A stretch of 64,000 nucleotides of DNA. Source: a bacterium. Lineage in GTDB: Bacteria; UBA10199; 2-02-FULL-44-16; JAAZCA01. A program made the translations under genes and the position numbers. The notes under the pieces were generated by a model. That model was given only the letters and a program-made list of their open reading frames with translations. It was not told the origin of the DNA and ran no database searches. The stretch is from the NCBI GenBank assembly GCA_021810905.1, contig JAJZQH010000014.1, positions 12,369 to 76,368 on the forward strand. The letters are read 5' to 3'. Shown here in pieces: positions 3,650 through 58,267 of the stretch; positions within the stretch are counted from its first letter, which is position 1; each line of letters begins with the position of its first letter.

Positions 3650-3874
3650 ATGATGAAAAACGTCGGCAATACGGATAAGTTGTTGCGCGTGATTCTCGGA
3701 CTTGCGATCTTCTATCTGGGCTACACATACAAGAGCTGGTGGGGTCTCGTGGGCTTCGCTCCGATCCTCACCGCTGTTTTCAGTTTCTGCCCAGCCTATG
3801 CGCTCTTCAAGATAAACACCTGCTGCAAGAAGGGCGAAGGCCAAGGAAAGGGCGGATGCTGCTGCGGAGGCTGA
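3650..3874 (+). CDS. DUF2892 (YgaP-like) small inner-membrane protein with Cys/Gly-rich C-terminal tail
   Basis: MMKNVGNTDKLLRVILGLAIFYLGYTY..WWGLVGFAPILTAVFSFCPAYALFKINTC matches the DUF2892 pattern. AAAGGGGG ribosome-binding site precedes ATG 3650. The tail reads CCKKGEGQGKGGCCCGG. Confidence 0.7.
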   Translation: MMKNVGNTDKLLRVILGLAIFYLGYTYKSWWGLVGFAPILTAVFSFCPAYALFKINTCCKKGEGQGKGGCCCGG

Positions 3875-3875
3875 T

Positions 3876-4772
3876 GTGGGTTTCAAGGCAGGGTACGTCG
3901 CGATAATCGGCAGGCCGAACGTGGGCAAGTCCACGCTGCTCAACGCCATCCTCGGCGAGCGGCTAGCCATAGTTACGCCCAAGCCGCAGACTACGCGTCA
4001 CCGCATCGTGGGGATTCTCAACGAGCCGGACGTGCAGGTCGTCTTTCTGGACACGCCCGGCTATCATCGTTCCGACAAACCGCTCAATCAGGCGATGAAC
4101 GAGATCGTAGATATGGTCATCCACGACGCGGACGTGGTCTGCCTCATGCTCGACGCATCGTCCAGCGACCTGCGCATCGAGCGCGGGCTCTTCGATCGCA
4201 TAGGCAGGGATCGCTGCATCCTCGTCGCCAACAAATCCGACCTCGTCGATCGCAAGAAGTTCGACGAGATCGCGCACCGCTTCCGCGACGATTGGAACGC
4301 GAACGAGATGGTCTTTCTCTCGGCGCTAAGGAACGAGGGCGTTCGCACGCTCATCGACGCGATCACCGCGCGCATGCCCGAGGGCGAGGCTTTTTTCCCT
4401 GACGACATCTACACGAGCCATCCCGTGCGCTTCATAGCGGCCGAACTCATCCGCGAGCAGCTCTTTTTGCAGATGCACCAGGAGATTCCTTATTCCACTG
4501 CGGTGGAGATAGAGGAATTCAAGGACGCCACCGAGAACGATCCGATAACGCGCATCAAAGCGTCGATCGTCGTTGAGAAGGAGTCGCAGAAGGCGATGGT
4601 GATAGGAAAGGGCGGCACGCGCATCCGCGAGATCGGCACCCGCGCGCGCAAGGCGATCGAGGAGCTGGTGGGCGGCAAGGTCTTCCTCGACCTCAACGTG
4701 AGGGTGGAGAAGGACTGGACCAAAGACCCCGACGCCATCCGCCGCCTGGGTTACTCATCACAGATGGAGTGA
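3876..4772 (+). CDS. era: GTPase Era
   Basis: G1 motif IIGRPNVGKSTLLN, G3 motif DTPG, G4 motif NKSD, and a C-terminal KH domain. Start codon abuts the previous stop. Confidence 0.92.
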   Translation: MGFKAGYVAIIGRPNVGKSTLLNAILGERLAIVTPKPQTTRHRIVGILNEPDVQVVFLDTPGYHRSDKPLNQAMNEIVDMVIHDADVVCLMLDASSSDLRIERGLFDRIGRDRCILVANKSDLVDRKKFDEIAHRFRDDWNANEMVFLSALRNEGVRTLIDAITARMPEGEAFFPDDIYTSHPVRFIAAELIREQLFLQMHQEIPYSTAVEIEEFKDATENDPITRIKASIVVEKESQKAMVIGKGGTRIREIGTRARKAIEELVGGKVFLDLNVRVEKDWTKDPDAIRRLGYSSQME

Positions 4773-4800
4773 CCCCGTATGATCGATGTCGCAGAGCGCC

Positions 4801-5883
4801 TCAAGGTTTTTCCCGCGGCTCCAAAATCGTAACGCCCGCGCGGATATTTTCCTGCGATTTGAGGTAGGGGAGCAGGGGTTCTTCGATCACCGCGTTTGCG
4901 CGCGATGAGGCGTGCCGAAGCATCGGCTCGCCGCGCGAGCCGTCCTTTTGTACTGGTACGAGCAGCAGGCCCATGTGCGCCACCATCACGCCGAACTTCT
5001 TTGCAGCCTCTTCTTTCCGGAGAAAGACCGCAATCGAGACCTCCGGCAACATGTCGATGAGCGAGGAGTTGAGTTCGTCGGCTTCGGGACAGTCCCCGAA
5101 GAAGGCGGACAGCGGGAGGAAATCGAGCACGACCTGCTGCGGGCCGCCAAGCCCCAGTTCCGCGAGTTCCATTCGCGCCGTGCTCTTTTCGCACTGAGAG
5201 AGATTTTCTTTATTGTCGATCCAACCGGCCCTGTCTATCGGCATGTCCATGGTGCCTGCCAGCTCGCCCCCGATTCCAACCGTGATATCGCGCAGAAAAC
5301 CGTTCCCCGAGTTTTCATCTATCCAGTCGGCCTCCACAAAGTGGTTGCGAAGCCCGTAGGTGCCGACTCCGCCGTGGTAGCGGATGCTCTGGAGCGTGCC
5401 CAGGAACGTGTCGAATGAGGTGGCATGCGACATGGCGAGCACCTCCTCCACGTACGTCATGCAGTCGAGCGCGTCGAAGCGGAACATGGGGTCCTGGTCC
5501 ACAAGCCCCGCGTTTCCTTCTCCCAGCGGATCGAGCTTATAAGGTGTGCCGAGGAAGCGGCGGCTGACGCATTCGAGCCTTTGCGCGAGCGGCATACTGC
5601 GCAACTGCGAGAGGATCGCCTGAAAAGTATTGTCCTCAGGGACAAAGGCGTTCTGGCCGGGCATCGGTGCGCACGGGTCGGGCGGCAGGGCCGCAAAGGA
5701 AGTCGCATTTTGAGGAGGCAGCGGTTGCTCGCATACTGGAAGGGGCTCAATCGGCACATATATAATAGATGAAGGATCGGCCACACAGACCGGCTCTTCC
5801 TCGGGTGTCATGCAAGCAGCGGGGGACGGCGAAGAGACGCAATAATTCCTGACTTCAGCGCTTAATTGTTCGCGGTGCGACAT
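4801..5883 (-). CDS. hypothetical protein with Pro/Cys-rich N-terminus
   Basis: 360-aa ORF with coding-like composition. Contains RFLGTPYKLDPLGEG, reminiscent of DUF1460 amidase-like proteins. Function not established. Confidence 0.55.
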   Translation of the reverse strand: MSHREQLSAEVRNYCVSSPSPAACMTPEEEPVCVADPSSIIYVPIEPLPVCEQPLPPQNATSFAALPPDPCAPMPGQNAFVPEDNTFQAILSQLRSMPLAQRLECVSRRFLGTPYKLDPLGEGNAGLVDQDPMFRFDALDCMTYVEEVLAMSHATSFDTFLGTLQSIRYHGGVGTYGLRNHFVEADWIDENSGNGFLRDITVGIGGELAGTMDMPIDRAGWIDNKENLSQCEKSTARMELAELGLGGPQQVVLDFLPLSAFFGDCPEADELNSSLIDMLPEVSIAVFLRKEEAAKKFGVMVAHMGLLLVPVQKDGSRGEPMLRHASSRANAVIEEPLLPYLKSQENIRAGVTILEPREKP

Positions 5884-6038
5884 GAAATGACCTCTATTAG
5901 TTATCGGCAGTCAGCGGAAAAAGTTGCAATGAAAATTTTTTATCATGAAAACCGTTGAATTATCAGGCAGATGATCCTGTCGCATTCGTGAGATCGTCGA
6001 TTGCAGAATCCATTGGCAGATGCTATCTGCGGTGCCCT

Positions 6039-7205
6039 ATGAAGAATACGCGAAATCGATTTGTCTTCAGCGCGGCATGGACCGTCGCTGGGATCATGGT
6101 TCTGGCCCTGTCTTTTACCGCCGCTTCCGCCTCTGCGCGTGACAAAGGTGGTTCCGGCGACGTGATAAATTATTCTTGGGCTTCCAGCAGGATCGAAGGC
6201 GAGCTCTGGGGGCTGGCACAGGGAAACCTGGATAACGACGGCTCCGCTGATACTGTGCTGCTCGAGCGCAAGCGCGTTCGCATCGGGAAAATCGGGGAGA
6301 AGGGCTTTGAGGAGCGATTCTCGTGCGGATGGAAAGAGGACGCGGCCGCGGCGCGCGCGTATCTGATCGATGTCGATGGTGATGGAAAAGACGAGATCGC
6401 AATATCCGCGGTAGAGGAGGGGATGCCCTCGTCGCTCGTGCTTGCGGTCGACGCGGACGCAAAGAAATGCAGCGAGCTCGTCTCGCGCGCGAGATGGTCG
6501 ATTCGCGCTGTGGCGCTGCCTGCTGAAGGCGCGGACACGGGGCCTGCCAGGCGCGTACTCGCCGGCCAGGCGTGGAGTTCGCAGAAATATTTCAGCGGCC
6601 CTATCGTGGAACTCGCGCTTAAGAAGGACAAGCTGGTCAGGCAGCGTGATATCGAGCTGCCGCACTTTACCGATCTTTATCAGTTCACGATCCTGCCGCC
6701 GGAGAACGGCGCTGAGCGGGTGCTCAGGCTCGCCGGCTATTCGGCAATGGAGCTTAGGGAGCACAAGGGCGGCGGCAAGTGGCGCAAGATCTGGCGCTCC
6801 GGCGACAAGCTCGGCGGGGCCGCGAATCTCCTTCCAGCCGTGCAGCGGCCCGCGCTCGATGAGGTGTCGAGCGACTACGCATATTTTGACCTGCCGCCGC
6901 TGACCCTCAAACAGGCCGATGGAGTGCACGCTCTGGCGGTCAAATACGACCTGCCGCTGCGCAACGTGATCGGAAGGACGCCGTACGCCAGGGGTGCAGA
7001 GACGGTGATGTTCAAACCAGATCCAGCGCTCACGTACATAGAAGAGAAGCGGACCCAGGACCTGCCAGGCCCGATCATGGATTACTTCATCGCAGCGCCG
7101 GCCGACTCCGCAGGCAAGGTCAGGCTTTATGTACTGGTACAGCAGGACGCAGGAGCCTTCATCAACTCCACCGAGGCATCGATACTCGCGTTCGATCTGA
7201 ACTAG
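6039..7205 (+). CDS. secreted hypothetical protein with FG-GAP/VCBS-like Asp-rich repeats
   Basis: Start set at MKNTRNRFVFSAAWTVAGIMVLALSFTAASASA, a signal peptide. Motifs DNDGSADTV and DVDGDGKDEIA. Stop TAG at 7203-7205. Confidence 0.65.
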   Translation: MKNTRNRFVFSAAWTVAGIMVLALSFTAASASARDKGGSGDVINYSWASSRIEGELWGLAQGNLDNDGSADTVLLERKRVRIGKIGEKGFEERFSCGWKEDAAAARAYLIDVDGDGKDEIAISAVEEGMPSSLVLAVDADAKKCSELVSRARWSIRAVALPAEGADTGPARRVLAGQAWSSQKYFSGPIVELALKKDKLVRQRDIELPHFTDLYQFTILPPENGAERVLRLAGYSAMELREHKGGGKWRKIWRSGDKLGGAANLLPAVQRPALDEVSSDYAYFDLPPLTLKQADGVHALAVKYDLPLRNVIGRTPYARGAETVMFKPDPALTYIEEKRTQDLPGPIMDYFIAAPADSAGKVRLYVLVQQDAGAFINSTEASILAFDLN

Positions 7206-7434
7206 GCACAACACATGAGGATCATGGTTTCGGGTCCTGTCGCCGGCCACCCCCATTTGTGACCTTCCGATAGGATTGTTGTACAATGCTGAAATGCCGC
7301 AGCGTGGGTTCCGCGCTGCGGCCGGCATCGCCGCATCTATCACAACTTTATGCGGGCATCGAAGGCGGCTGCTGGCGTCAAATGGGGGTCCCCCGTCCAG
7401 CGCCACCCAAAACCATGATCCTCATGTGTTGTGA
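7206..7434. repeat. 229-nt long-hairpin element with 24-25 nt terminal inverted repeats (MITE-like or structured RNA)
   Basis: GCACAACACATGAGGATCATGGTTT at 7206-7230 is the reverse complement of 7410-7434 (24 of 25 match). Interior is further self-complementary (CCACCCCCATTTG with CAAATGGGGG). Starts on the first base after the stop of the upstream gene. Confidence 0.6.
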
Positions 7435-7505
7435 CAGTTGCACTGATGAATTCCCTAGGTTGCCGAAACGTTATGAACGGAGTCAACCTTACGTTTGGCA
7501 CTTGA

Positions 7506-7774
7506 GCGGTGCAGCTATTCGGCCTGGAGTTTATTGGCGGGCATCGCGTAGAGAGCCGTCTTTGTCGGCGAGCGGTTGCCGGTCGTGCCAGAGTAGAAGC
7601 CCGGGTTGCACGACGCCGAGGCTGTTCGAGCCTGCGAAAGCGGTTTTTTTTAGAGGTAAAGACTTCTTTTGCTTTCGCAGGCGAGTTCCGAGGCGAGGCA
7701 ACCCGAGTCCGTTACAAAGACGTGCGAACGGAGCGCCGCCCGACGATAAACTCCAGGCCGAATAGCTGCACCGC
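7506..7774. repeat. 269-nt element closed by 24-nt perfect inverted repeats, with internal 12-bp hairpin
   Basis: GCGGTGCAGCTATTCGGCCTGGAG at 7506-7529 is the reverse complement of 7751-7774. Internal hairpin GCCTGCGAAAGC with a 29-nt U-rich loop and GCTTTCGCAGGC at 7630-7682. Lies in the convergent gap about 50 nt from the gltB stop. Confidence 0.6.
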
Positions 7775-7822
7775 CTTGGTGCCAATCTGCGTGTTGACTT
7801 CGTTCATAACGTCTCGCCGCGC

Positions 7823-10800
7823 TTACCGCGGAGTCACTAGGATGAAACGGGTGGAGGTTTCCTGCCAGGTGTCCAGCAGGCTGCGGGCTTGCGGGCTCTT
7901 TGTATCATTATAATAGTCAGTCAGGATCTCCCTGAGCGCATCTGTCTTGCCCGGTTCGTCCGCGAGAGATATTGCCGTCACGTCGGAATGCAGGCGCTCG
8001 CGCGCGCTGCCGTCCGGATCAAAGAGATATATCTCTCCGCCGGTCATGCCTGAGCCGACGCAGGGTCCGCATCTGCCGAGCACCACGCCAGTGCCGCCTG
8101 TCATGTATTCGAACGCGTATTTGCCGACCCCCTCGCAGATCAGCAGCGCGCCAGAGTTGCGCACTCCAAAGCGCTGGCCAGCCCTGCCGGCGATATAGAG
8201 ACGACCGCCTGTTGCACCGTATGCAGCGGAATTGCCGACGAGGTGTGGAGCGCAATCGCCTCCAACCCCGGCAGGCGGCGCAATCACGACGCTCGCATTG
8301 CCGCTCATCGCCTCTGCGACGCCGTCGTTTGCAAAGCCGTCGAGCCTTAGGGTCATGCCGTCCGTCGCGGCAAAGCCGAATCCATGTCCGGAATAGCCCT
8401 TGGCGTGGATCTCAATTCGTTCCGCGGTTTCTGCCACCCTCTCCCTTGATGGGAGAGGGAAGGGTGAGGGTGCATCCGATCTCAGCCTGGCTATTTCTCC
8501 TGCAAGCGTTGCGCCCACGGCGTGGTCGCCGTTGCAAAGCGATATGCGTATCGGCGCATTCCCGGCGCGTCCGTCGAACACGGCGCGGGCGGAAGAGAGG
8601 ATCTCGGCGTTCCTTGCGGATACGGCACGAAATTCCGTTTGAACACATCGTGCAGTGCGCGCCTCGCCATGGAAGTACATGAGCATATCCGTGAAATCGA
8701 GACGATCCCAGCGCGCCATACCTGATACGCGAGGTTTCAAGAGATCCACGCGGCCCACGAGTTCGCGCGGGTGTGTGAGGCCCAACGTAGCGAGTATGTT
8801 CCTTAAGTCGTCGCCCATGCATTCGAGATAGCGGATCACGCCGCTTTTTGCTTCATTATATCGATCCATCGCTGCTGCTTCATCGGGATGCACTCCCTTG
8901 AGATAGCCGCGCATGAAGCGTTTGTTCTGTTTTTCCTCGTCCTGCGTCGCGATGCCCACCGGGCAGTTGCCCTTGTTGCACCCACGGCAGAATATGCAGC
9001 ACTCGGCCACGAGGAGCGGCGTGCCTATGGAGACTTCATCGGCGCCGAGCGCGATGATCTTTGCCGCATCCATGCCGCACTTGATGCCGCCGTCCGCGCG
9101 CACGCGCACGCGCGAGCGGATTCCGTTTACGACAAGATATTGATGCAGCTCGGAGACGCCGCGTTCGATCGGCAGTCCCGCGTGCGAGATGCTGCCGGAG
9201 CTCGCGGCGCCGGTGCCGCCCTCAAAGCCGCTCACCACGATCACGTCGGCGCCTGCCTTTGCAACTCCAACGCCGATCGTCCCGAGATTTGTGACCGATG
9301 GAACCTTGACCGACACGATTGCTTCAGGATGCAGCTCGCGGAGATTGGTGATCAGCTGTGCAAGATCCTCGATGCTGTAGATGTCATGATGCGGGGGAGG
9401 GCTGATGAGATCCACGCCAGGCTTCGTCTTTCTGATGCGCGCGATTTCCTCGGTGACTTTTCTGCCGGGCAGGTGGCCGCCCTCGCCGGGCTTGGCGCCC
9501 TGGCCGATCTTTATCTCGATCTCGTCCGCGTGTACGAGATACGTGGCGTCCACGCCGAACCTGCCGGACGCGATCTGGCGGATCCTGCTGCGATCGGAGG
9601 CCCACTCGCCGTCCTGGTTTCGACGCTCGTCTTCTCCGCCCTCGCCGGAGCATGAGGCTGCATCGAAGTGGTTGAAGGCCGACGCTATGGCGCGATGTGC
9701 CGTCGAGTTGAGCGCACCGTGCGACATGGCTGCCCCGCGTATCGTACTCCTTACGATCTCTCTTGTGTCCGCGACTTTTTCGAGATGCGGCGGCATGTCG
9801 CTTTTTTTGAATTCGAGCATGTCGCGCAGATATACGGGAGGTGTATCTTCAAGCAGTTTCACGAACCGGTCGTAGTCGCCGTTTGAATTTCCGTTGCGCG
9901 CAACGAGCTGGAGCGCGTCTGTCACTTCCTTGCGATAGACCGTCATGTTTTTGTTTCGCGCTATGGCATTCGAACCGACGGCCGAGCGTGCGACTGTGTC
10001 CTCGTAGATGTCGTCCATGGTGATGCCGCCGAGCCGCGAGACCGTATCCGGGATGTAGTATTCGACGACATCCGAAGAGATGCCGATCGCCTCGAAGAGC
10101 GCCGAGCCGCGATAACCGGTGAGAGTCGTGATGCCCATCTTCGACATGATGCGCCTCAGCGTGTGCACAACCGACTTCACAACGTTGGCGTACGCTTCGT
10201 CAGGTGGGATATCGGAAAAAGTCGTGGCCAGGTGCAGCATGGCGTACGGGTTCACGGCCGTGGCGCCGTAGGAGAGCAGGATCGCACAATCGTGGCCTTC
10301 GTGCGTGCTGCCCGTCTCGGCAATGATGCTGGCAAAGCGCCGGAGGCCCCTAGCGGCGAGCGCCTGATGGATGGAGCTCACAACGAGCAGCATGGGAACC
10401 GGCGGCCTTTCGCCGCGCGTGGCGGCGTAATCCGTAACAACGAGTATCGACGCCTCCTTGGAGCGTATCACGCGCACGGCTTCGTCGGTGAGGTCGTGTA
10501 TCCTTCTCACGATTTCGCGCGGGCTGCCTTTGTCGACGAAAGTCGCGTCGATCTCGTGCGCCTTTAGTTCAGAGATATCTGATGAGAGGATCGCCTGCAT
10601 CTGATCGTTCGTCAGTATCGGGTGATCCAACTTATACTGCGGCCACGACATGTAATCGCTGCGCCTGCTGATGCGCGGCGAGCGGCCCAGGTACACCGTA
10701 GTATCTATGGCGCCGCCCTCGCGCAGCGGATCGATGGGCGGATTTGTGACGACAGCAACGATCTGGTGAAGGAAGCTGTAGAGCCTGGAATGGTTTTCGC

Positions 10801-12259
10801 TGAAGATCGCGAGCGGGCTGTCGTTGCCCATGCCGAGAATCGGCTCCTTGCCGCCCTTGATCATCTCGTGCAGTTGCTCGATGCGCTCCTTTGTCCAGCC
10901 GAACGCGTTGAGCGCGCGGATATCGAGCGGCTCGCTCTGCCTGCCTCTGCCGATGGGGAGCAGATCCACCGTGGCCAGGTTTTCGAAGTTGAGCCCGGTG
11001 CGATCTACGATCCATGCGGTCGCAGACTCAGGAGATATGAACTCGCCGTTCTCCACGTCGGCGATAAGCATTGCACCCGGCTCGAGCTGGCCATCGCACT
11101 CGATCTCCGAGGCTTCGAGCGGAACCGCACCGGCCTCGCTCGATACGATCACGCGATCGGATTTAGTCCTCACGTATCGTAGCGGCCGCAGTCCCATGCG
11201 GTCCATCGCCGCCGCGAGTATTTTTCCATCCGTGCCGAGGATCGCTATCGGTCCCTCCCACGCGCCCATGGTTCCGAGCGCGCGGCGATTCGCCTCGAAA
11301 AATCTGCGTTCGCGCTCGCCGAGCAGGTCTTCGTCCCAGGCGGGGGAGATCATCCTGCGCAGCGCCTCGTGGATGCCGGTGACGCCGTTGGCCACCATCA
11401 TCTCGGCCACGCGGTCGAGCTGCGCGGAATCGCTTCCGTGGTTCATGAGCGTGTTGCCGATGGCGAGCGCGCTGTCCGCGTCCTTGATGGCGCGGCAGTT
11501 TGCGGTGATCGTGTTGATCTCGCCGTTGTGCGCGATGTGCCGAAACGGCTGCACCAGATTCCAGTTGGAGAACGTGTTGGTAGAGAAGCGCCTGTGCGCC
11601 ACTATAACCCTCGTCTTGAACTCCGGATCGCGGAAGTCCTCATAGAATGACGCGAGTTGATCGGACTTAGCGAGCGCCTTGTAAACGGTTGTATGCGGAG
11701 CGAGCGAGACCACGTTGACTATGCCGGCGAGCTCGCGCTCTATGAGGACCTTCGCGTGGTGGAGCGCTTCAAAGAGCTGCGCCTCCCGCCTGTGGCCCTT
11801 GGCTGCGAGGAGCTGGAATATGATGGGTGCGTCTTCCCGCGCACGAGCGCCCAGTGCAGACGGATCAACCGGAGTCTTGCGCCAACCGAGCGGGGCGAGA
11901 CCCTCCCTGCGTATGATGAGGTCCATTTCGCGCGTGAGCTGCGGGATATTGCGCTCGCCGTGGAGGAAAAAGACCGTGCCCACGATGAGAGGTTCCTTTG
12001 CGCTCTGGAGGGAGCGTCCGTGCGCGATGAATCGCTCGAAGAAGGACCTCTCCGGCCGGAGGATCAGCCCCGCGCCGTCGCCCGTGTCTCCGAGCGAGCC
12101 GCCCCGGTGCTCCATGCGGATGAGCCCGTCCAGGGCCTGCCTGAGCAGTTCGTGGGAGGCCGGCGCAGCCAGATCGGCGATAGCGAGGATCGCGCATCCC
12201 CCGCGGCCGGGGTCGCCCTTGATTTCCTCGATGCGTTTTTTGTATTTTTTCGTATTCAT
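7823..12259 (-). CDS. gltB: glutamate synthase large subunit (single chain, about 1478 aa)
   Basis: N-terminal Ntn amidotransferase region (GDPGRGGCAILAIAD), central FMN/Fe-S domain, C-terminal GXGXG domain. Start set at MNTKKYKK (ATG 12257-12259) with an AAGGA ribosome-binding site. Confidence 0.9.
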   Translation of the reverse strand: MNTKKYKKRIEEIKGDPGRGGCAILAIADLAAPASHELLRQALDGLIRMEHRGGSLGDTGDGAGLILRPERSFFERFIAHGRSLQSAKEPLIVGTVFFLHGERNIPQLTREMDLIIRREGLAPLGWRKTPVDPSALGARAREDAPIIFQLLAAKGHRREAQLFEALHHAKVLIERELAGIVNVVSLAPHTTVYKALAKSDQLASFYEDFRDPEFKTRVIVAHRRFSTNTFSNWNLVQPFRHIAHNGEINTITANCRAIKDADSALAIGNTLMNHGSDSAQLDRVAEMMVANGVTGIHEALRRMISPAWDEDLLGERERRFFEANRRALGTMGAWEGPIAILGTDGKILAAAMDRMGLRPLRYVRTKSDRVIVSSEAGAVPLEASEIECDGQLEPGAMLIADVENGEFISPESATAWIVDRTGLNFENLATVDLLPIGRGRQSEPLDIRALNAFGWTKERIEQLHEMIKGGKEPILGMGNDSPLAIFSENHSRLYSFLHQIVAVVTNPPIDPLREGGAIDTTVYLGRSPRISRRSDYMSWPQYKLDHPILTNDQMQAILSSDISELKAHEIDATFVDKGSPREIVRRIHDLTDEAVRVIRSKEASILVVTDYAATRGERPPVPMLLVVSSIHQALAARGLRRFASIIAETGSTHEGHDCAILLSYGATAVNPYAMLHLATTFSDIPPDEAYANVVKSVVHTLRRIMSKMGITTLTGYRGSALFEAIGISSDVVEYYIPDTVSRLGGITMDDIYEDTVARSAVGSNAIARNKNMTVYRKEVTDALQLVARNGNSNGDYDRFVKLLEDTPPVYLRDMLEFKKSDMPPHLEKVADTREIVRSTIRGAAMSHGALNSTAHRAIASAFNHFDAASCSGEGGEDERRNQDGEWASDRSRIRQIASGRFGVDATYLVHADEIEIKIGQGAKPGEGGHLPGRKVTEEIARIRKTKPGVDLISPPPHHDIYSIEDLAQLITNLRELHPEAIVSVKVPSVTNLGTIGVGVAKAGADVIVVSGFEGGTGAASSGSISHAGLPIERGVSELHQYLVVNGIRSRVRVRADGGIKCGMDAAKIIALGADEVSIGTPLLVAECCIFCRGCNKGNCPVGIATQDEEKQNKRFMRGYLKGVHPDEAAAMDRYNEAKSGVIRYLECMGDDLRNILATLGLTHPRELVGRVDLLKPRVSGMARWDRLDFTDMLMYFHGEARTARCVQTEFRAVSARNAEILSSARAVFDGRAGNAPIRISLCNGDHAVGATLAGEIARLRSDAPSPFPLPSRERVAETAERIEIHAKGYSGHGFGFAATDGMTLRLDGFANDGVAEAMSGNASVVIAPPAGVGGDCAPHLVGNSAAYGATGGRLYIAGRAGQRFGVRNSGALLICEGVGKYAFEYMTGGTGVVLGRCGPCVGSGMTGGEIYLFDPDGSARERLHSDVTAISLADEPGKTDALREILTDYYNDTKSPQARSLLDTWQETSTRFILVTPR
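8435..8482 (-). repeat. palindromic repeat copy embedded in-frame in gltB, encoding SDAPSPFPLPSRERVAE
   Basis: Reverse complement reads GATCGGATGCACCCTCACCCTTCCCTCTCCCATCAAGGGAGAGGGTGGCAGAAACC. It is near-identical to the intergenic copy at 43171-43229. Contains the hairpin CCCTCTCCC..GGGAGAGGG. Confidence 0.7.
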
Positions 12260-12573
12260 GGTTCCTTGCGCAGTAGAAGCAGCTTTTCTCAGTGACGGGA
12301 GGATTGATGTCAAGACGAAATGCTTGCGAAGCAATCTTCTTTATGTCATATGCGCCAGACGTTTTGCCCAGTGACAACTTGATTGCGGGCTGTTCAAAAT
12401 GACCAGATGCAAGGCTCCCGATGGAGCCTGACTGAGATTCACTTGAAAGAGGGTTTCAGAAATAGTGCGAGACGAGGCAGGCTGAGGAGGCCGGCCGAGT
12501 CGTACTGTAAGTACGTCGCAGGCCGTGCCGACGAAGACAACGAAGTATCGCGCTATTTATGAAACCCGACATT

Positions 12574-12647
12574 GGCGGGATAGCTCAGATGGTGAGAGCG
12601 AGGGATTCATAACCCCTAGGTCGACGGTTCGATCCCGTCTCCCGCCA
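12574..12647 (+). tRNA. tRNA with CAU anticodon (elongator tRNA-Met or lysidine tRNA-Ile2)
   Basis: Cloverleaf read by hand. Acceptor stem GGCGGGA pairs with TCCCGCC. D-arm GCTC..GAGC. Anticodon loop TTCATAA. T-arm GACGG TTCGATC CCGTC. A G1-C72 pair argues against initiator tRNA. Confidence 0.8.
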
Positions 12648-12688
12648 CAAAATATTAAGGCGCCGTCAAGGCGCCTTAATATTTTGCG
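12648..12688 (+). terminator. rho-independent terminator
   Basis: Perfect 16-bp stem AAAATATTAAGGCGCC, loop GTCA, then GGCGCCTTAATATTTT followed by TTTTG. Immediately after the tRNA. Confidence 0.75.
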
Positions 12689-13952: not shown

Positions 13953-15806
13953 ATGATATTCGATAGAAACAGTGATTATGATGAAGTGCAGAGCCTCTTC
14001 CGCATTGCGGAGTGGTACGGTTTCCTCTATCGCGTTGAGGCGCGCGGGCTTGCTGAACTCAAGAAAGCGGCCATGCGCGTAGAGCCGCTCGATAAATACG
14101 ATCGTAATTTGCTTGAAAATGCATACAGAGCGCTCGTCAATCATCCTGAAGCTGAAATGGCACGTGCGCGCTGGAAGATTAAACGCGGCGGCCAGGCTGA
14201 AGCAGGAAACGGATTAACTCTCTGGCCCGTTGAAAGCAGCAGGGATACAGTGCCCGCATCCGGAGAAGTCTCCTCCTCCGAAGCCACGACGCAACCGCCG
14301 CCGCCTCCCGCCCCAGAAGCTGATACGCTGCCGCCTCCCGCTGCTGACGAAGCTGTTGAGTTTCCGCCGGCGACTCCCGTTCCCGCCGAGACCAGAGATT
14401 TGACTTCGAGAAAAGAAATGGAGGCGCAGTTGAGAGTGCTGGGGCCCGCCTTCTCGAAGACGGCGCGCATGGCGATATCTTTGTCAAAGGATTCGATATA
14501 TATTGAGTTCATACATCTTCACTTCGACGGGTTGTTCGCAAGGCTCTCCGCCCTGATCAATGCGTTGACGGATGATAAGACATCATCGTCTGTATCATTG
14601 GCTGACAGATTCATCACGCGCGCCAGCCAGGACATGAATACCGCCGGATTGCTAACCGAGTGCGATACAGGGGTCCTGCACTTCTTTGCAGCAGGCCTTT
14701 TGGCCGATATATCCATGGCGCTGGCAGAGTTTGAGGGAGAGGATGGTGAGCGGCTTTCTGCATTATCGCAGCTCGTGATATCCGCAAAACAGTCGGATGA
14801 ATTGTTGTCGGCGGCGCGTGCGCAGATACTTGAAGCGCATCTCCGCGCGCAACTGATATTGAACCCGTATCCAGATCCTGCAACGTTCAATACGGCTGAG
14901 CAAAACAACAGCCGTCCAAGAGACGGTACTCCGACCGTCGTGGCGCCTGCTGAGGTCAGTGCAGCTCCGGTCAGAAACGTTAGAGCCGACAGCCGTCGAG
15001 TCGAGGCCTATGACGTCGATGAAACAAGGGAGCGCTGTCTGGAACTGGTCAACAAGTTAGGCGTCGGCAGCACTGGCGCGCATATAATGCAGCGACACAA
15101 TCAGCTTCAACGGATACTGGGCGGCGCGTTTGATGTCGAACCTCTTTCCACGGTCTTCAGGCAGATAGTCCGCGATCTCGATATGATTGCGCGCATAGAC
15201 GATGCTCAGAGATTGCGTCCAGAGATATACGAAAGCGGCGAGAGCGCCGAGAATGGAATGAAGGCGTTTGATGGACTGGTGCAGAATGTCTGCAAGGAGA
15301 TAAAAGTTGCAGCCTTGATGATAAAAAAAGAGAGCGAAAATACAGCTGAAGACTTCGAAACCCTGGCGAAAGAAATATCAGATGACCTACAGGAGCTGTG
15401 GAAGGGGCGTTCAATAGTTGCGACTTTACGAATAAGAGAGATGGAGGAAGAGGTCAGAAGTCATCTTCTTGCAGAGTTCCAGAACGAAGGCCGTACAAAG
15501 TTCGATGAACTGCGCGCAAAGCTCATGGACGGGCATATCCGCGCTGCCTGCATCATCACTCCGGTCGATGTGCCGTCGGCAGGCGGGTCGGGCACGCCGG
15601 GCGGAGGCAATGCGGGTCCGGCTACATCGGCAGACGGCGATCCGGAGATAAGAGTTACTTATTCATCTGTTGAGCAGGGTGAAGACTCTTCCGCGGTTTC
15701 CGATGGCGATACGTTTGGGACCTCTTCCCTCGAATACCTCGACGCCGCCGGCGTACCGGCGGCGCAATTGGCTTCCTCTCAAGTTATCCTGTCCCCGGTT
15801 CTTTAA
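13953..15806 (+). CDS. hypothetical protein with Pro-rich linker
   Basis: Long ORF with coding-like composition. Start ambiguous: GTG 13932 or ATG 13953. Internal PPPPPAPEADTLPPPAADE linker. No recognisable domain. Confidence 0.5.
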   Translation: MIFDRNSDYDEVQSLFRIAEWYGFLYRVEARGLAELKKAAMRVEPLDKYDRNLLENAYRALVNHPEAEMARARWKIKRGGQAEAGNGLTLWPVESSRDTVPASGEVSSSEATTQPPPPPAPEADTLPPPAADEAVEFPPATPVPAETRDLTSRKEMEAQLRVLGPAFSKTARMAISLSKDSIYIEFIHLHFDGLFARLSALINALTDDKTSSSVSLADRFITRASQDMNTAGLLTECDTGVLHFFAAGLLADISMALAEFEGEDGERLSALSQLVISAKQSDELLSAARAQILEAHLRAQLILNPYPDPATFNTAEQNNSRPRDGTPTVVAPAEVSAAPVRNVRADSRRVEAYDVDETRERCLELVNKLGVGSTGAHIMQRHNQLQRILGGAFDVEPLSTVFRQIVRDLDMIARIDDAQRLRPEIYESGESAENGMKAFDGLVQNVCKEIKVAALMIKKESENTAEDFETLAKEISDDLQELWKGRSIVATLRIREMEEEVRSHLLAEFQNEGRTKFDELRAKLMDGHIRAACIITPVDVPSAGGSGTPGGGNAGPATSADGDPEIRVTYSSVEQGEDSSAVSDGDTFGTSSLEYLDAAGVPAAQLASSQVILSPVL

Positions 15807-20600: not shown

Positions 20601-20681
20601 AAAACGTCGTTCGTCGTTAGTCGTTCGTGAATCGTAAAGACCTCAGTCACTTGGGCGGTTTTACGATCGACGAACGACGAA
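20601..20681. repeat. TAGT-arm hairpin element, copy A (5-prime leader of yfgM-like gene)
   Basis: AAAACGTCGTTCGTCGTTAGTCGTTCGTGAATCGTAAAGACCTCAGTCACTTGGGCGGTTTTACGATCGACGAACGACGA. Arms and core are self-complementary. Homologous copies at 36618-36728 and 39975-40050. Confidence 0.65.
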
Positions 20682-20758
20682 GGAGGTGTCCAATTCCTAC
20701 CTATAAACAGCTGCCGCGCGGGAAGCAAAAAGCGCACGACGATTTCAAAGACTGGAGC

Positions 20759-24687: not shown

Positions 24688-24704
24688 AATCTTGTGACAA
24701 TCAA

Positions 24705-24794
24705 CCCCTCCCCTTTGTAAGGGGAGGATGGGAGAGGTAGACCGTGGATACAACCACGATCTACCTCCCCTCGCCCCTCCTTACAAAGGAGGGG
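24705..24794. repeat. REP-like palindromic element: two inverted units of CCCCTCC-TTTGTAA-GGAGGGG..GGGAGGTAGAYC
   Basis: Unit at 24705-24743, palindromic spacer GTGGATACAACCAC, inverted unit at 24758-24794. The same unit recurs at 57518-57555. Confidence 0.7.
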
Positions 24795-24817
24795 AATAAA
24801 TCGTCACTTATCACTGC

Positions 24818-26320: not shown

Positions 26321-26340
26321 ACTTAGTGATAGTATGGTGG

Positions 26341-26470
26341 TACGTTAGTACGTTAGTACGTTAGTACTTTCGTACGTTCGTTAAGCGTGTGAGCTGTCAG
26401 GTTTAGAACACCATGTTCGATCACGATCCTTTAACTAACGTACCAACGTACTAACGTACCAACGTACGAA
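26341..26470. repeat. inverted-repeat element with TACGTTAG tandem arms (divergent member of the TAGT-arm family)
   Basis: Left arm is TACGTTAG repeated about 3.5 times. Right arm is the reverse-complement pattern CTAACGTACCAACGTACTAACGTACCAACGTACG. About 70-nt core. Lies directly upstream of guaA. Confidence 0.55.
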
Positions 26471-26479
26471 GTTGATACC

Positions 26480-28021
<1,542 letters not shown>

Positions 28022-36618: not shown

Positions 36619-36728
36619 AAACCGTCGTTCGTCGTTAGTCGTTCGTCGATCGTGACGGCCTCAAGAACATGGACGTTTTTACGATCAACGCACCACGAAT
36701 TACGAACGACTAACGACTAACGACGAAA
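36618..36728. repeat. TAGT-arm hairpin element, copy B (fills the gap from the dnaE stop to the ribosome-binding site of the next gene)
   Basis: AAAACCGTCGTTCGTCGTTAGTCGTTCGTCGATCGTGACGGCCTCAAGAAC..GTTTTTACGATCAACG..CGAACGACTAACGACTAACGACGAAAC. Arms are reverse complements. Aligns with copy A. Confidence 0.65.
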
Positions 36729-43023: not shown

Positions 43024-43137
43024 TTCAAGGGGAATGATTGACCTTGCGGTATTGGTGCTGTAAAAAAGCGATCCGTGTTGAACAGCCGCCGCAATAACGC
43101 AGAGAGTGGGCTATGCGAAAGACGATAATATTGAAAG

Positions 43138-43262
43138 CTCCCCGCGGCAAGCCGCGGGGAATCATCGGCAACATTTCCGATCACCCTCACCCTTCCCTCT
43201 CCCCTCAAGGGAGAGGGTGGCGGAAACCCCGCAGCAAGCTGCGGGGTTTCATCGGATTGGCA
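43138..43262. repeat. cluster of three REP-like hairpins
   Basis: Hairpin a: CCCCGCGG-CAAG-CCGCGGGG at 43140-43159. Hairpin b: 43171-43229, the near-identical copy of the gltB insert, with CCCTCTCCC-CTCAA-GGGAGAGGG. Hairpin c: AAACCCCGCAGC-AA-GCTGCGGGGTTT at 43224-43249. Hairpins a and c are followed by the related tails AATCATCGGCAA and TCATCGGATTGGCAA. Confidence 0.7.
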
Positions 43263-57511: not shown

Positions 57512-57517
57512 ATATTA

Positions 57518-57555
57518 CCCCTCCTTTGTAAGGAGGGGTAGGGGAGGTAGATCCT
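57518..57555. repeat. REP-like unit CCCCTCC-TTTGTAA-GGAGGGG-TAGGGGAGGTAGATCC (same family as 24705-24794)
   Basis: Begins 7 nt after the arsP stop. Hairpin stem of 7 bp with a TTTGTAA loop. Near-identical to the inverted unit at 24758-24794. Confidence 0.7.
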
Positions 57556-58152: not shown

Positions 58153-58191
58153 ATCCCAAATTTCAACAACCCAGTTCTAAACAATTTTCAA

Positions 58192-58234
58192 CCTCCAAAA
58201 AATCAAACAATATCCTGGTGTTTGATTTTTGGAG
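58192..58234. terminator. bidirectional rho-independent terminator between convergent folE and the HEAT-repeat gene
   Basis: CTCCAAAAAATCAAACA then loop then TGTTTGATTTTTGGAG. A-rich and T-rich on both sides, in an AT-rich 115-nt gap. Confidence 0.6.
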
Positions 58235-58267
58235 CTTTGAAATTTTGGTGCTTGAAATTTGATATCT

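Follow-up and report, generated by a model that had tools for sequence, protein, structure and literature searches.

The stretch of DNA analyzed here, 64,000 nt of contig JAJZQH010000014.1 in assembly GCA_021810905.1 (hereafter the window), comes from a bacterium of the UBA10199 lineage, which is deeply branching, uncultured and very sparsely sampled. The genes of the window are housekeeping genes (era, der, bamB, guaB, guaA, dnaE, hflX, suf and others), and the subject of this study, element A, lies in the spacer between a secreted hypothetical protein gene and gltB. The upstream gene, P0001 (6096-7205, + strand), encodes a protein of 369 aa with weak FG-GAP similarity, and the convergent gltB gene (7823-12259, - strand, stop codon at 7823-7825) encodes the large subunit of glutamate synthase. 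The 617-nt spacer between them (7206-7822) holds two hairpins, namely A at 7206-7434 and a hairpin of ~367 nt, here called B, at 7456-7822. Element B, which lies downstream of A at a distance of 22 nt and extends to the stop codon of gltB, was not reported in the preliminary description of this DNA, which had been made from the sequence alone. Downstream of A, only B precedes the 3' end of gltB, with no adjacent reverse transcriptase (RT) gene. No other spacer of the window is as strongly structured, the value here being -0.545 kcal/mol per nt, compared with -0.11 to -0.43 elsewhere.

Element A is a 229-nt non-coding imperfect palindrome to which no strand is assigned. It begins, as had been described, directly after the TAG stop codon (7203-7205) of the upstream + strand gene. 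Its terminal inverted repeats (TIRs) were recovered as a 25-mer, GCACAACACATGAGGATCATGGTTT, at 7206-7230 (+) and 7410-7434 (-) with one mismatch, and when the window was shuffled 100 times with its dinucleotides kept, two matches to this 25-mer were found in 0 cases. By repeat search the TIRs extend over 29 nt, with 7207-7235 pairing with 7405-7433 at 97% complementarity. Further inwards, the sub-terminal repeat ACCCCCATTTG at 7249-7259 is 100% complementary to CAAATGGGGGT at 7379-7389, in agreement with the self-pairing noted before. The internal stem previously given as 8 bp is present, and its size is 12 bp (7296-7307 with 7311-7322, 92%); it forms a GC-rich, off-centre hairpin at 7296-7322 with a 3-nt loop. 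Folding of the whole element into a single hairpin was confirmed on both strands, with a minimum free energy (MFE) of -123.6 kcal/mol (+) and -124.5 kcal/mol (-) and z scores of -8.9 (+) and -9.2 (-), and equal stability was reached by 0 of 200 shuffles. The palindromic part is confined to ~55 nt at either end, and the central ~119 nt are branched and non-palindromic. A weak sigma-70-like promoter match, by consensus match only (GTGACC, 17-nt spacer, TACAAT; 9/12), lies at 7259-7287 on the + strand. The element is flanked by ...AACTAG(G) and (A)CAGTTG..., and the sequence beyond its ends is CAGTTGCAC (+) and CTAGTTCAG (-). The element contains the 30-mer CACATGAGGATCATGGTTTCGGGTCCTGTC. An identical copy of A is present in contig DAHVYM010000003.1 of an NCBI metagenome-assembled genome (MAG; GCA_027327785.1) and in an ENA MEGAHIT k141 contig (ERZ27237050), and its first 36 nt are also covered by a Logan contig of run SRR13189623. 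Since the same sequence stands in separately built assemblies, A is not an assembly artefact.

With respect to coding capacity, the earlier statement that A contains no coding open reading frame (ORF) holds. The element's own ORFs encode 44-53 aa, and a 159-aa ORF on the + strand (7286-7765), which had been annotated by a gene caller and which crosses A and runs on into B, is not a gene; both this ORF and a - strand ORF across B (7531-7785) are artefacts of palindromic repeats. The 159-aa ORF was used as a probe for ORFs called on further hairpin copies and matched just two database proteins, P0127 and P0128, over residues 87-155, which correspond to the core of B. A further match, P0129, derives from a frame on the opposite strand that is shifted relative to the window. 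Amino-acid identity between these ghost ORFs is 74-75%, compared with a nucleotide identity of 88% across the B core. Because the amino-acid identity is the lower of the two and P0129 is read from the opposite strand in a shifted frame, the ORFs are not genes, and the 159-aa ORF was rejected as a real gene on this non-coding substitution pattern and frame shift. Public "hypothetical protein" entries P0126-P0129, which lie across hairpins, are likewise non-coding artefacts of palindromic repeats, and are a caution for annotators that such elements yield spurious proteins. The structure, the position and the non-coding nature of A are shown by these data, as are the repeated nature of its neighbours and the abundance of hairpins like it, which are described next.

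Element B proved to belong to a repeated family. Its MFE is -213 kcal/mol (+) and -200 kcal/mol (-), with z scores of -12 and -15. The left arm of 84 nt (7464-7547) is 81% complementary to the right arm (7733-7816) and consists largely of locus-specific sequence, and between the arms lies a conserved core of 195 nt (7544-7738) which is 88% identical to L010:5133-5327. L010, on which P0128 lies, is a 174-kb contig of the window's assembly. It probably belongs to the same genome as the window, since the two share an assembly and correlate at 0.969 in their tetranucleotides (the two halves of the window correlate at 0.973). In all there is evidence for at least four copies of B, two of them available as DNA and two, P0127 and P0129, deduced from peptides. 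The copies of L010, P0127 and P0129 share the core together with 33-nt inner arms, TTGAC(T/A)CATGGTCTGC(G/A)GGAGTTCTTGCTGGGC, and the similarity between L010 and P0127 appears to end sharply at TTGAC.../...GTCAA. Beyond this common unit each locus has its own, mutually complementary arms. The outer arms of L010 (5061-5089 and 5371-5399) are 97% complementary, and the peptides which flank the core in P0127, TESSDSTPSS and NDGVESDDSG, fit reverse-complementary DNA over 27 nt, the shuffled control giving 18.9 +/- 2.4 nt with a longest run also of 27. The window's arms are weakly similar to the common inner arms and still pair. When the two DNA copies were compared by RNAalifold, 18 pairs were altered on both sides yet remained paired, two of them in the apex stem (7630-7641 with 7671-7682), where the window and L010 copies differ by two compensatory double changes (GCCTGC.../...GCAGGC versus GCTCGC.../...GCGAGC). 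Both B loci end at a - strand stop codon, that of gltB in the window and that of an HD-domain gene (stop at 5398-5400) in L010. The B core had 0 matches in viral contigs, and no Rfam families were found in L010. On the simplest reading, a stop codon is followed by a locus-specific hairpin, in whose apex B is nested as a non-coding palindromic unit, and the complementarity of its arms could be kept by arm-to-arm gene conversion or by selection for pairing.

A second hairpin beside B was also found in L010. This hairpin, A' (L010:4707-4965), is 259 nt long with perfect 32-nt TIRs and lies 95 nt from the L010 copy of B, A' and A being on the same side of their respective B cores. Its TIR, GGCRTTNCGGGATYRTCTGTTTCGGAAC, recurs in a 334-nt hairpin, A'' (L008:4323-4656), with ~90% identity over 31-54 nt and a different interior. 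L008 is the locus of the relative that carries the 74% identical gltB, and A'' is adjoined there by another long hairpin, X (L008:3970-4218), both lying downstream of the gltB region. A' and A'' form a MITE-like family (MITE, miniature inverted-repeat transposable element), present in two distantly related genomes, in which the TIRs are kept and the interiors vary, the classic MITE pattern. No nhmmer match was obtained between the B core and hairpin X. Homology between A and A' was considered and rejected, as local alignment was no better than with shuffles, and so was a resemblance of the TIR core of A to that of A' and A'' (GGAT..T.GTTTCGG), A being missing at E<=100 from the matches to an nhmmer profile of the four arms. 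Positions 7226-7241 of A agree with the left end of X at 15 of 16 positions (E 0.007), a marginal match that nhmmer with the whole element did not confirm. As for RNA strand bias, judged by G-U counts and MFE, the + strand was favored for B and its L010 copy, the - strand for A' and neither for A; these biases are not significant and in part reflect shared ancestry.

Other palindromes in this genome are repeated as well. Positions 43129-43262 and L011:14468-14601 carry copies of a repeat that measures 125-134 nt and consists of three hairpins, and its 50-nt middle hairpin (43182-43231; L011:14520-14569) is found a third time, inverted and 94% identical, within gltB at 8423-8472. There it forms an in-frame insert of ~16 codons (...SDAPSPFPLPSRERVAE...) that is missing in 8 of 8 homologues, which resembles the palindromic elements of Rickettsia. 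This in-frame copy demonstrates, on the level of sequence comparison, that palindromic repeats of this genome are mobile. Further long hairpins of the window lie at 12452-12568, 20601-20687, 24694-24807, 26330-26481, 36619-36727, 57513-57553 and 58160-58262, and five of them (those starting at 24694, 26330, 36619, 57513 and 58160) begin 0-11 nt past a stop codon. The copies at 36619-36727 and 20601-20687 are 81% identical.

Relatives of the locus are few. P0001 has four homologues only, at 45-55% identity, and no relative of the family was found among the GTDB representatives. In the alignment the C-terminus of P0001, ...FDLN, corresponds to FDLP, FDL, FDLH and FDLNVAN in the four homologues. 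The TAG therefore marks the family's usual C-terminus and A did not truncate the upstream gene, so that an insertion-caused C-terminal truncation of P0001 was ruled out. At the four homologous loci other genes lie downstream and no A-like hairpin is present; the spacer after the homologue is ~26 nt in two of them, and in the others it is without a long inverted repeat. Among 5.8 billion proteins the best gltB homologue is 67% identical over its full length, with 74% for a partial sequence, and the spacers downstream of gltB at the nearest loci (74% partial, 66% full length) are tight (5 nt and 100 nt). In L003 (GCA_016927275.1) the order is Era, the P0001 homologue, a different block and then Der, and by this comparison of gene order A and B sit at a synteny breakpoint.

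A hint that A may itself be repeated came from the ends of short-k contigs. Logan contigs of run SRR13189623, for which k=31 was assumed, are 100% identical to the window, and one of them, L012, reaches 36 nt into A before it breaks off at window position 7241. At the opposite side this contig stops at L011:14497, where it has covered 29 nt of the proven 125-nt repeat beginning at 14468, and contig L014 starts at window position 57526, from where a REP-like unit (REP, repetitive extragenic palindromic) continues for another 29 nt; a fourth Logan contig end falls within a gene. The same offset arithmetic suggests a repeat start within A at 7212 (CACATGAGG...).

Taken together, these observations lead us to read A as a non-coding palindromic (foldback) element of MITE/REP-like type, one of many long imperfect intergenic palindromes, and to this reading we assign a probability of about 55%. 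Prokaryotic MITEs are shorter than 500 bp, carry TIRs of 4-30 bp and give stable stem-loop transcripts (PMC10969869), and A is likewise below 500 bp (229 nt), non-coding and bounded by TIRs, and its transcript would form a stable stem-loop. The earlier suggestion of a non-autonomous transposable element is the best-supported class through its context, that is through B, A', the gltB insert and the contig break; A itself showed neither a target-site duplication nor, in the ~90 kb sampled, a second copy. That A as such has been mobile we infer from this context of neighbouring repeated elements.

Several results weigh against this reading. No direct repeat was present at 7206/7434, 7207/7433 or 7212/7428 as a target-site duplication, and the GC content of A (58.5%, window 57.5%) does not mark it as AT-rich. 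There is no U-tract terminator at either end on either strand. The BLASTN check for further copies that had been proposed, carried out with blastn-short against the window, L010, L011 and L013, returned A alone, which amounts to one copy in ~90 kb of the source genome. The short unit in many copies by which REP sequences and REPINs are recognized is not seen, as the arms of A are absent elsewhere in these four sequences. The TIR 19-mer CAACACATGAGGATCATGG had 0 matches in GTDB representatives and 0 in IMG/VR, collections from which the source genome is absent. In the JGI metagenomes, where the source genome is again absent, the same 19-mer had one chance match, in a coding region and without a second arm. 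Plasmid and phage collections, searched by blastn in distant mode, held nothing similar to A. The TIR of A is not significantly similar, by nhmmer, to the TIR family of L010 and L008, and no transposase, integrase or RT domains were found among the scanned ORFs of the window. Polymorphism or a drop of coverage at the hairpin could equally explain the contig break at 7241, and since either would break a contig alike, the break is a lead and not a result. MITE flanking repeats decay with age, and clustered elements insert into one another (PMC10969869). As A is without a target-site duplication and its copy number is unproven, it is best called a probable MITE/REP-like orphan and not a confirmed member of such a family.

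In terms of origin, a palindromic mobile element would have inserted, or locally expanded, beside or within existing hairpin DNA. For B, direct evidence of such an event is given by the unit of ~266 nt that is common to the loci, apparently sharp-ended and nested in locus-specific complementary arms. Because A directly adjoins the TAG, any RNA that reads on past the upstream gene would contain it as a 3' untranslated region (UTR), and the 3' UTR reading also offered by the preliminary description is compatible with the position of A. In the read-through RNA a 29-bp stem would close a hairpin with a folding energy near -124 kcal/mol. If REP, ERIC and Correia elements are taken as a guide, this hairpin would block 3'-to-5' exonucleases and so shield the end of the mRNA, its length would suit it as a substrate for RNase III, and it might influence how translation and convergent transcription terminate. 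A ribosome terminating at the TAG would have to open the stem over its first ~12 bp, and A and B together could insulate the convergent genes from each other's transcription.

The alternative that survives best, which we hold to be possible but on the unlikely side, is that A was never mobile and evolved in place, for example by local inverted duplication, as a 3'-end stabiliser, an insulator or a terminator without a U-tract. The exact start of A past a native stop codon, its place between convergent genes with B abutting the other stop, and the many window genes that carry a long hairpin 0-11 nt past their stop codon are all as would be expected of a 3'-end structure, and a single copy without target-site duplication in all searched data is equally in keeping with local evolution. 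Termination as such a function is at odds with the lack of a U-tract on both strands, and homologues of the upstream gene in relatives do without a hairpin of this kind. The ends, 29 bp long and almost perfectly paired, enclose a 119-nt interior that is not palindromic and so have the look of TIRs plus cargo more than of an inverted duplication in decay, the similar elements in the neighbourhood are repeated families, and the contig break within A falls at an offset typical of repeats, all of which count against evolution in place.

A broader and decidedly speculative proposal concerns the lineage as a whole. Its long hairpins, A among them, may arise from an undescribed class of non-coding palindromic mobile elements that enter the apexes of hairpins after stop codons, and repeated entry would give nested "onion" palindromes and two-hairpin modules (B+A in the window, B'+A' in L010 and X+A'' in L008); or else the modules may be a bipartite structured-RNA unit at the 3' ends of genes. 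We regard this proposal as rather improbable, less so than the readings that follow.

An independent structured RNA gene with its own promoter, 6S-like or another small RNA, is improbable. The fold of A is very stable (z ~-9), a weak promoter-like match lies inside it, and the + strands of B and of its L010 copy are 14-20 kcal/mol more stable than the - strands, so that selection at the RNA level is conceivable for elements of this kind. For A the two strands fold alike (-123.6 versus -124.5), and there is therefore no strand signal. No Rfam match was returned for positions 6500-8500 by cmscan at E<=1, 6S models included, no homologue exists at the locus of any relative, and the element is not flanked by a promoter and terminator pair. 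A does resemble 6S RNA in being ~200 nt long and mostly double-stranded; it differs in that both the MFE and the centroid structure predict two to three hairpins in a branched interior, with no single central bubble of the open-promoter kind, and in the lack of conservation, promoter and terminator. The 6S-like RNA proposed in the preliminary description is accordingly not supported, as there was no Rfam match, no single central bubble and no relative that conserves it.

Still less probable is a site acting at the DNA level, whether attC-like, a cruciform binding site or a retron msr/msd. A directly follows an ORF, and its ends, GCACAAC and GTTGTGA, agree in part with the inverse core and core sites of attC, at 6 of 7 positions of RYYYAAC and at 5 of 7 positions of GTTRRRY. 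The attC sites of integrons are about 57-141 nt long and are defined by bulged extrahelical bases and by a central spacer, left unpaired, that separates the R and L boxes. At 229 nt A is much longer, and its first 24 bp pair continuously, with neither bulged bases nor such a spacer. There is no integrase, cassette array or RT nearby, the flanking genes are those of a secreted hypothetical protein and gltB, and the neighbouring B follows a housekeeping gene in the opposite orientation. A chimeric fold-back produced in metagenome assembly, for which the metagenome-assembled source and the one short-k contig ending in A could be cited, can be dismissed given the same sequence in the NCBI MAG, ENA MEGAHIT k141 and Logan (first 36 nt) contigs, an imperfect palindrome with bulges and a non-palindromic core where chimeric fold-backs are perfect, and a mid-contig location between intact genes.

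A number of side observations were made on the other palindromes. The arms of the hairpins at 26330-26481, 36619-36727 and 20601-20687 are built of tandem 7-8-mers (GTACGTTA; GTCGTTC/GTCGTTA); one of these hairpins lies between guaB and guaA, and one extends from the base after the dnaE stop codon to just before the next ribosome-binding site. The hairpin at 24694-24807 is REPIN-like, 114 nt long and located 6 nt past a stop codon, and consists of a ~41-nt unit (CCCCTCCTTTGTAAGGAGGGG + TAGGGGAGGTAGATC) doubled in inverted orientation, which also occurs singly at 57513-57553, 2 nt past another stop codon. REPIN-like inverted pairs (AAGGGGTCAAGTCTTGACATTGGACAGCTTT) are present in L003 at 1219-1388, 3737-3896 and 5785-5956, and they flank a Y1_Tnp gene (3925-4911) beside era that resembles the REP-associated tyrosine transposases (RAYTs); such a gene was met in L003 only, and the window showed none for a RAYT. 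The 117-nt hairpin at 12452-12568 ends 5 nt upstream of tRNA-Met(CAT) (12574-12648), which is directly followed by a perfect 17-bp palindrome (12648-12686), and the tRNA with part of its upstream region is kept beside the P0001 homologue in L005. Finally, a clustered regularly interspaced short palindromic repeat (CRISPR) array is located at L011:19278-20169, at the contig end and outside the window, ~6-7 kb beyond its start; in it GTTTCAATCCACGCGCCCGCGAGGGGCGCGAC occurs 14 times with a period of 64-68 nt. It adjoins a gene pair encoding HEPN and nucleotidyltransferase proteins, and no cas genes were seen in the stretch examined.

Taken alone, A is a routine object of the palindromic intergenic repeat type and opens no new question. 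Its context is of modest value, in that spacers are packed with unrelated families of long hairpins at stop codons, that one hairpin family combines a conserved core with co-varying arms, and that one palindromic repeat sits in frame in an essential enzyme. If nesting into hairpin apexes is targeted, it would offer a natural example of structure-directed DNA insertion.

Among known systems, the Correia elements of Neisseria (CREE/NEMIS) have TIRs of ~26 bp, lie next to genes, are co-transcribed with them and form hairpins that can be cleaved by RNase III, some with promoter-like hexamers. A is similar in its 29-bp TIRs and duplex, in abutting a stop codon and in its weak internal promoter-like match. 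Correia elements differ from it in measuring 100-155 bp, in their hundreds of near-identical copies, in a TA target duplication and in a site for integration host factor, whereas A has 229 nt, no target-site duplication and was seen once. The REP/BIME/REPIN and ERIC/IRU families of Proteobacteria are imperfect palindromes of transcribed spacers that are often found past stop codons and stabilise the upstream mRNA, and a REP no farther than ~15 nt from a stop codon can reportedly disturb translation termination (a result attributed to Liang, Rudd and Deutscher, 2015). The window shares with them the doublet and single unit at 24694-24807 and 57513-57553 and the hairpins directly after stop codons. 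REPs, unlike A, are units of 20-40 nt in hundreds of copies that are mobilised by RAYT proteins, whereas A, an orphan in the present data, is much longer and its core is not palindromic.

In the pneumococcus, the unlike small repeat families BOX, RUP and SPRITE cluster between genes and insert into one another (PMC10969869). The window is comparable in that A and B are adjacent, that such a pair recurs in L010 and L008 and that the B unit is nested in arms; it differs in the organism, in the unrelated sequences and in the nesting of palindrome within palindrome. To our knowledge, there is no description of such nesting among the repeats of the pneumococcus. Certain insertion sequences target palindromes, IS1397 and ISKpn1 choosing the loops of REPs and members of the IS110/IS1111 family choosing REPs or palindromic MITEs. 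These insertion sequences are autonomous and protein-coding, whereas A and B are non-coding and scans of the window identified no cognate transposase; what the B family has in common with them is an insert flanked by complementary, locus-specific arms, the arrangement that results when an element enters the apex of a palindrome already present.

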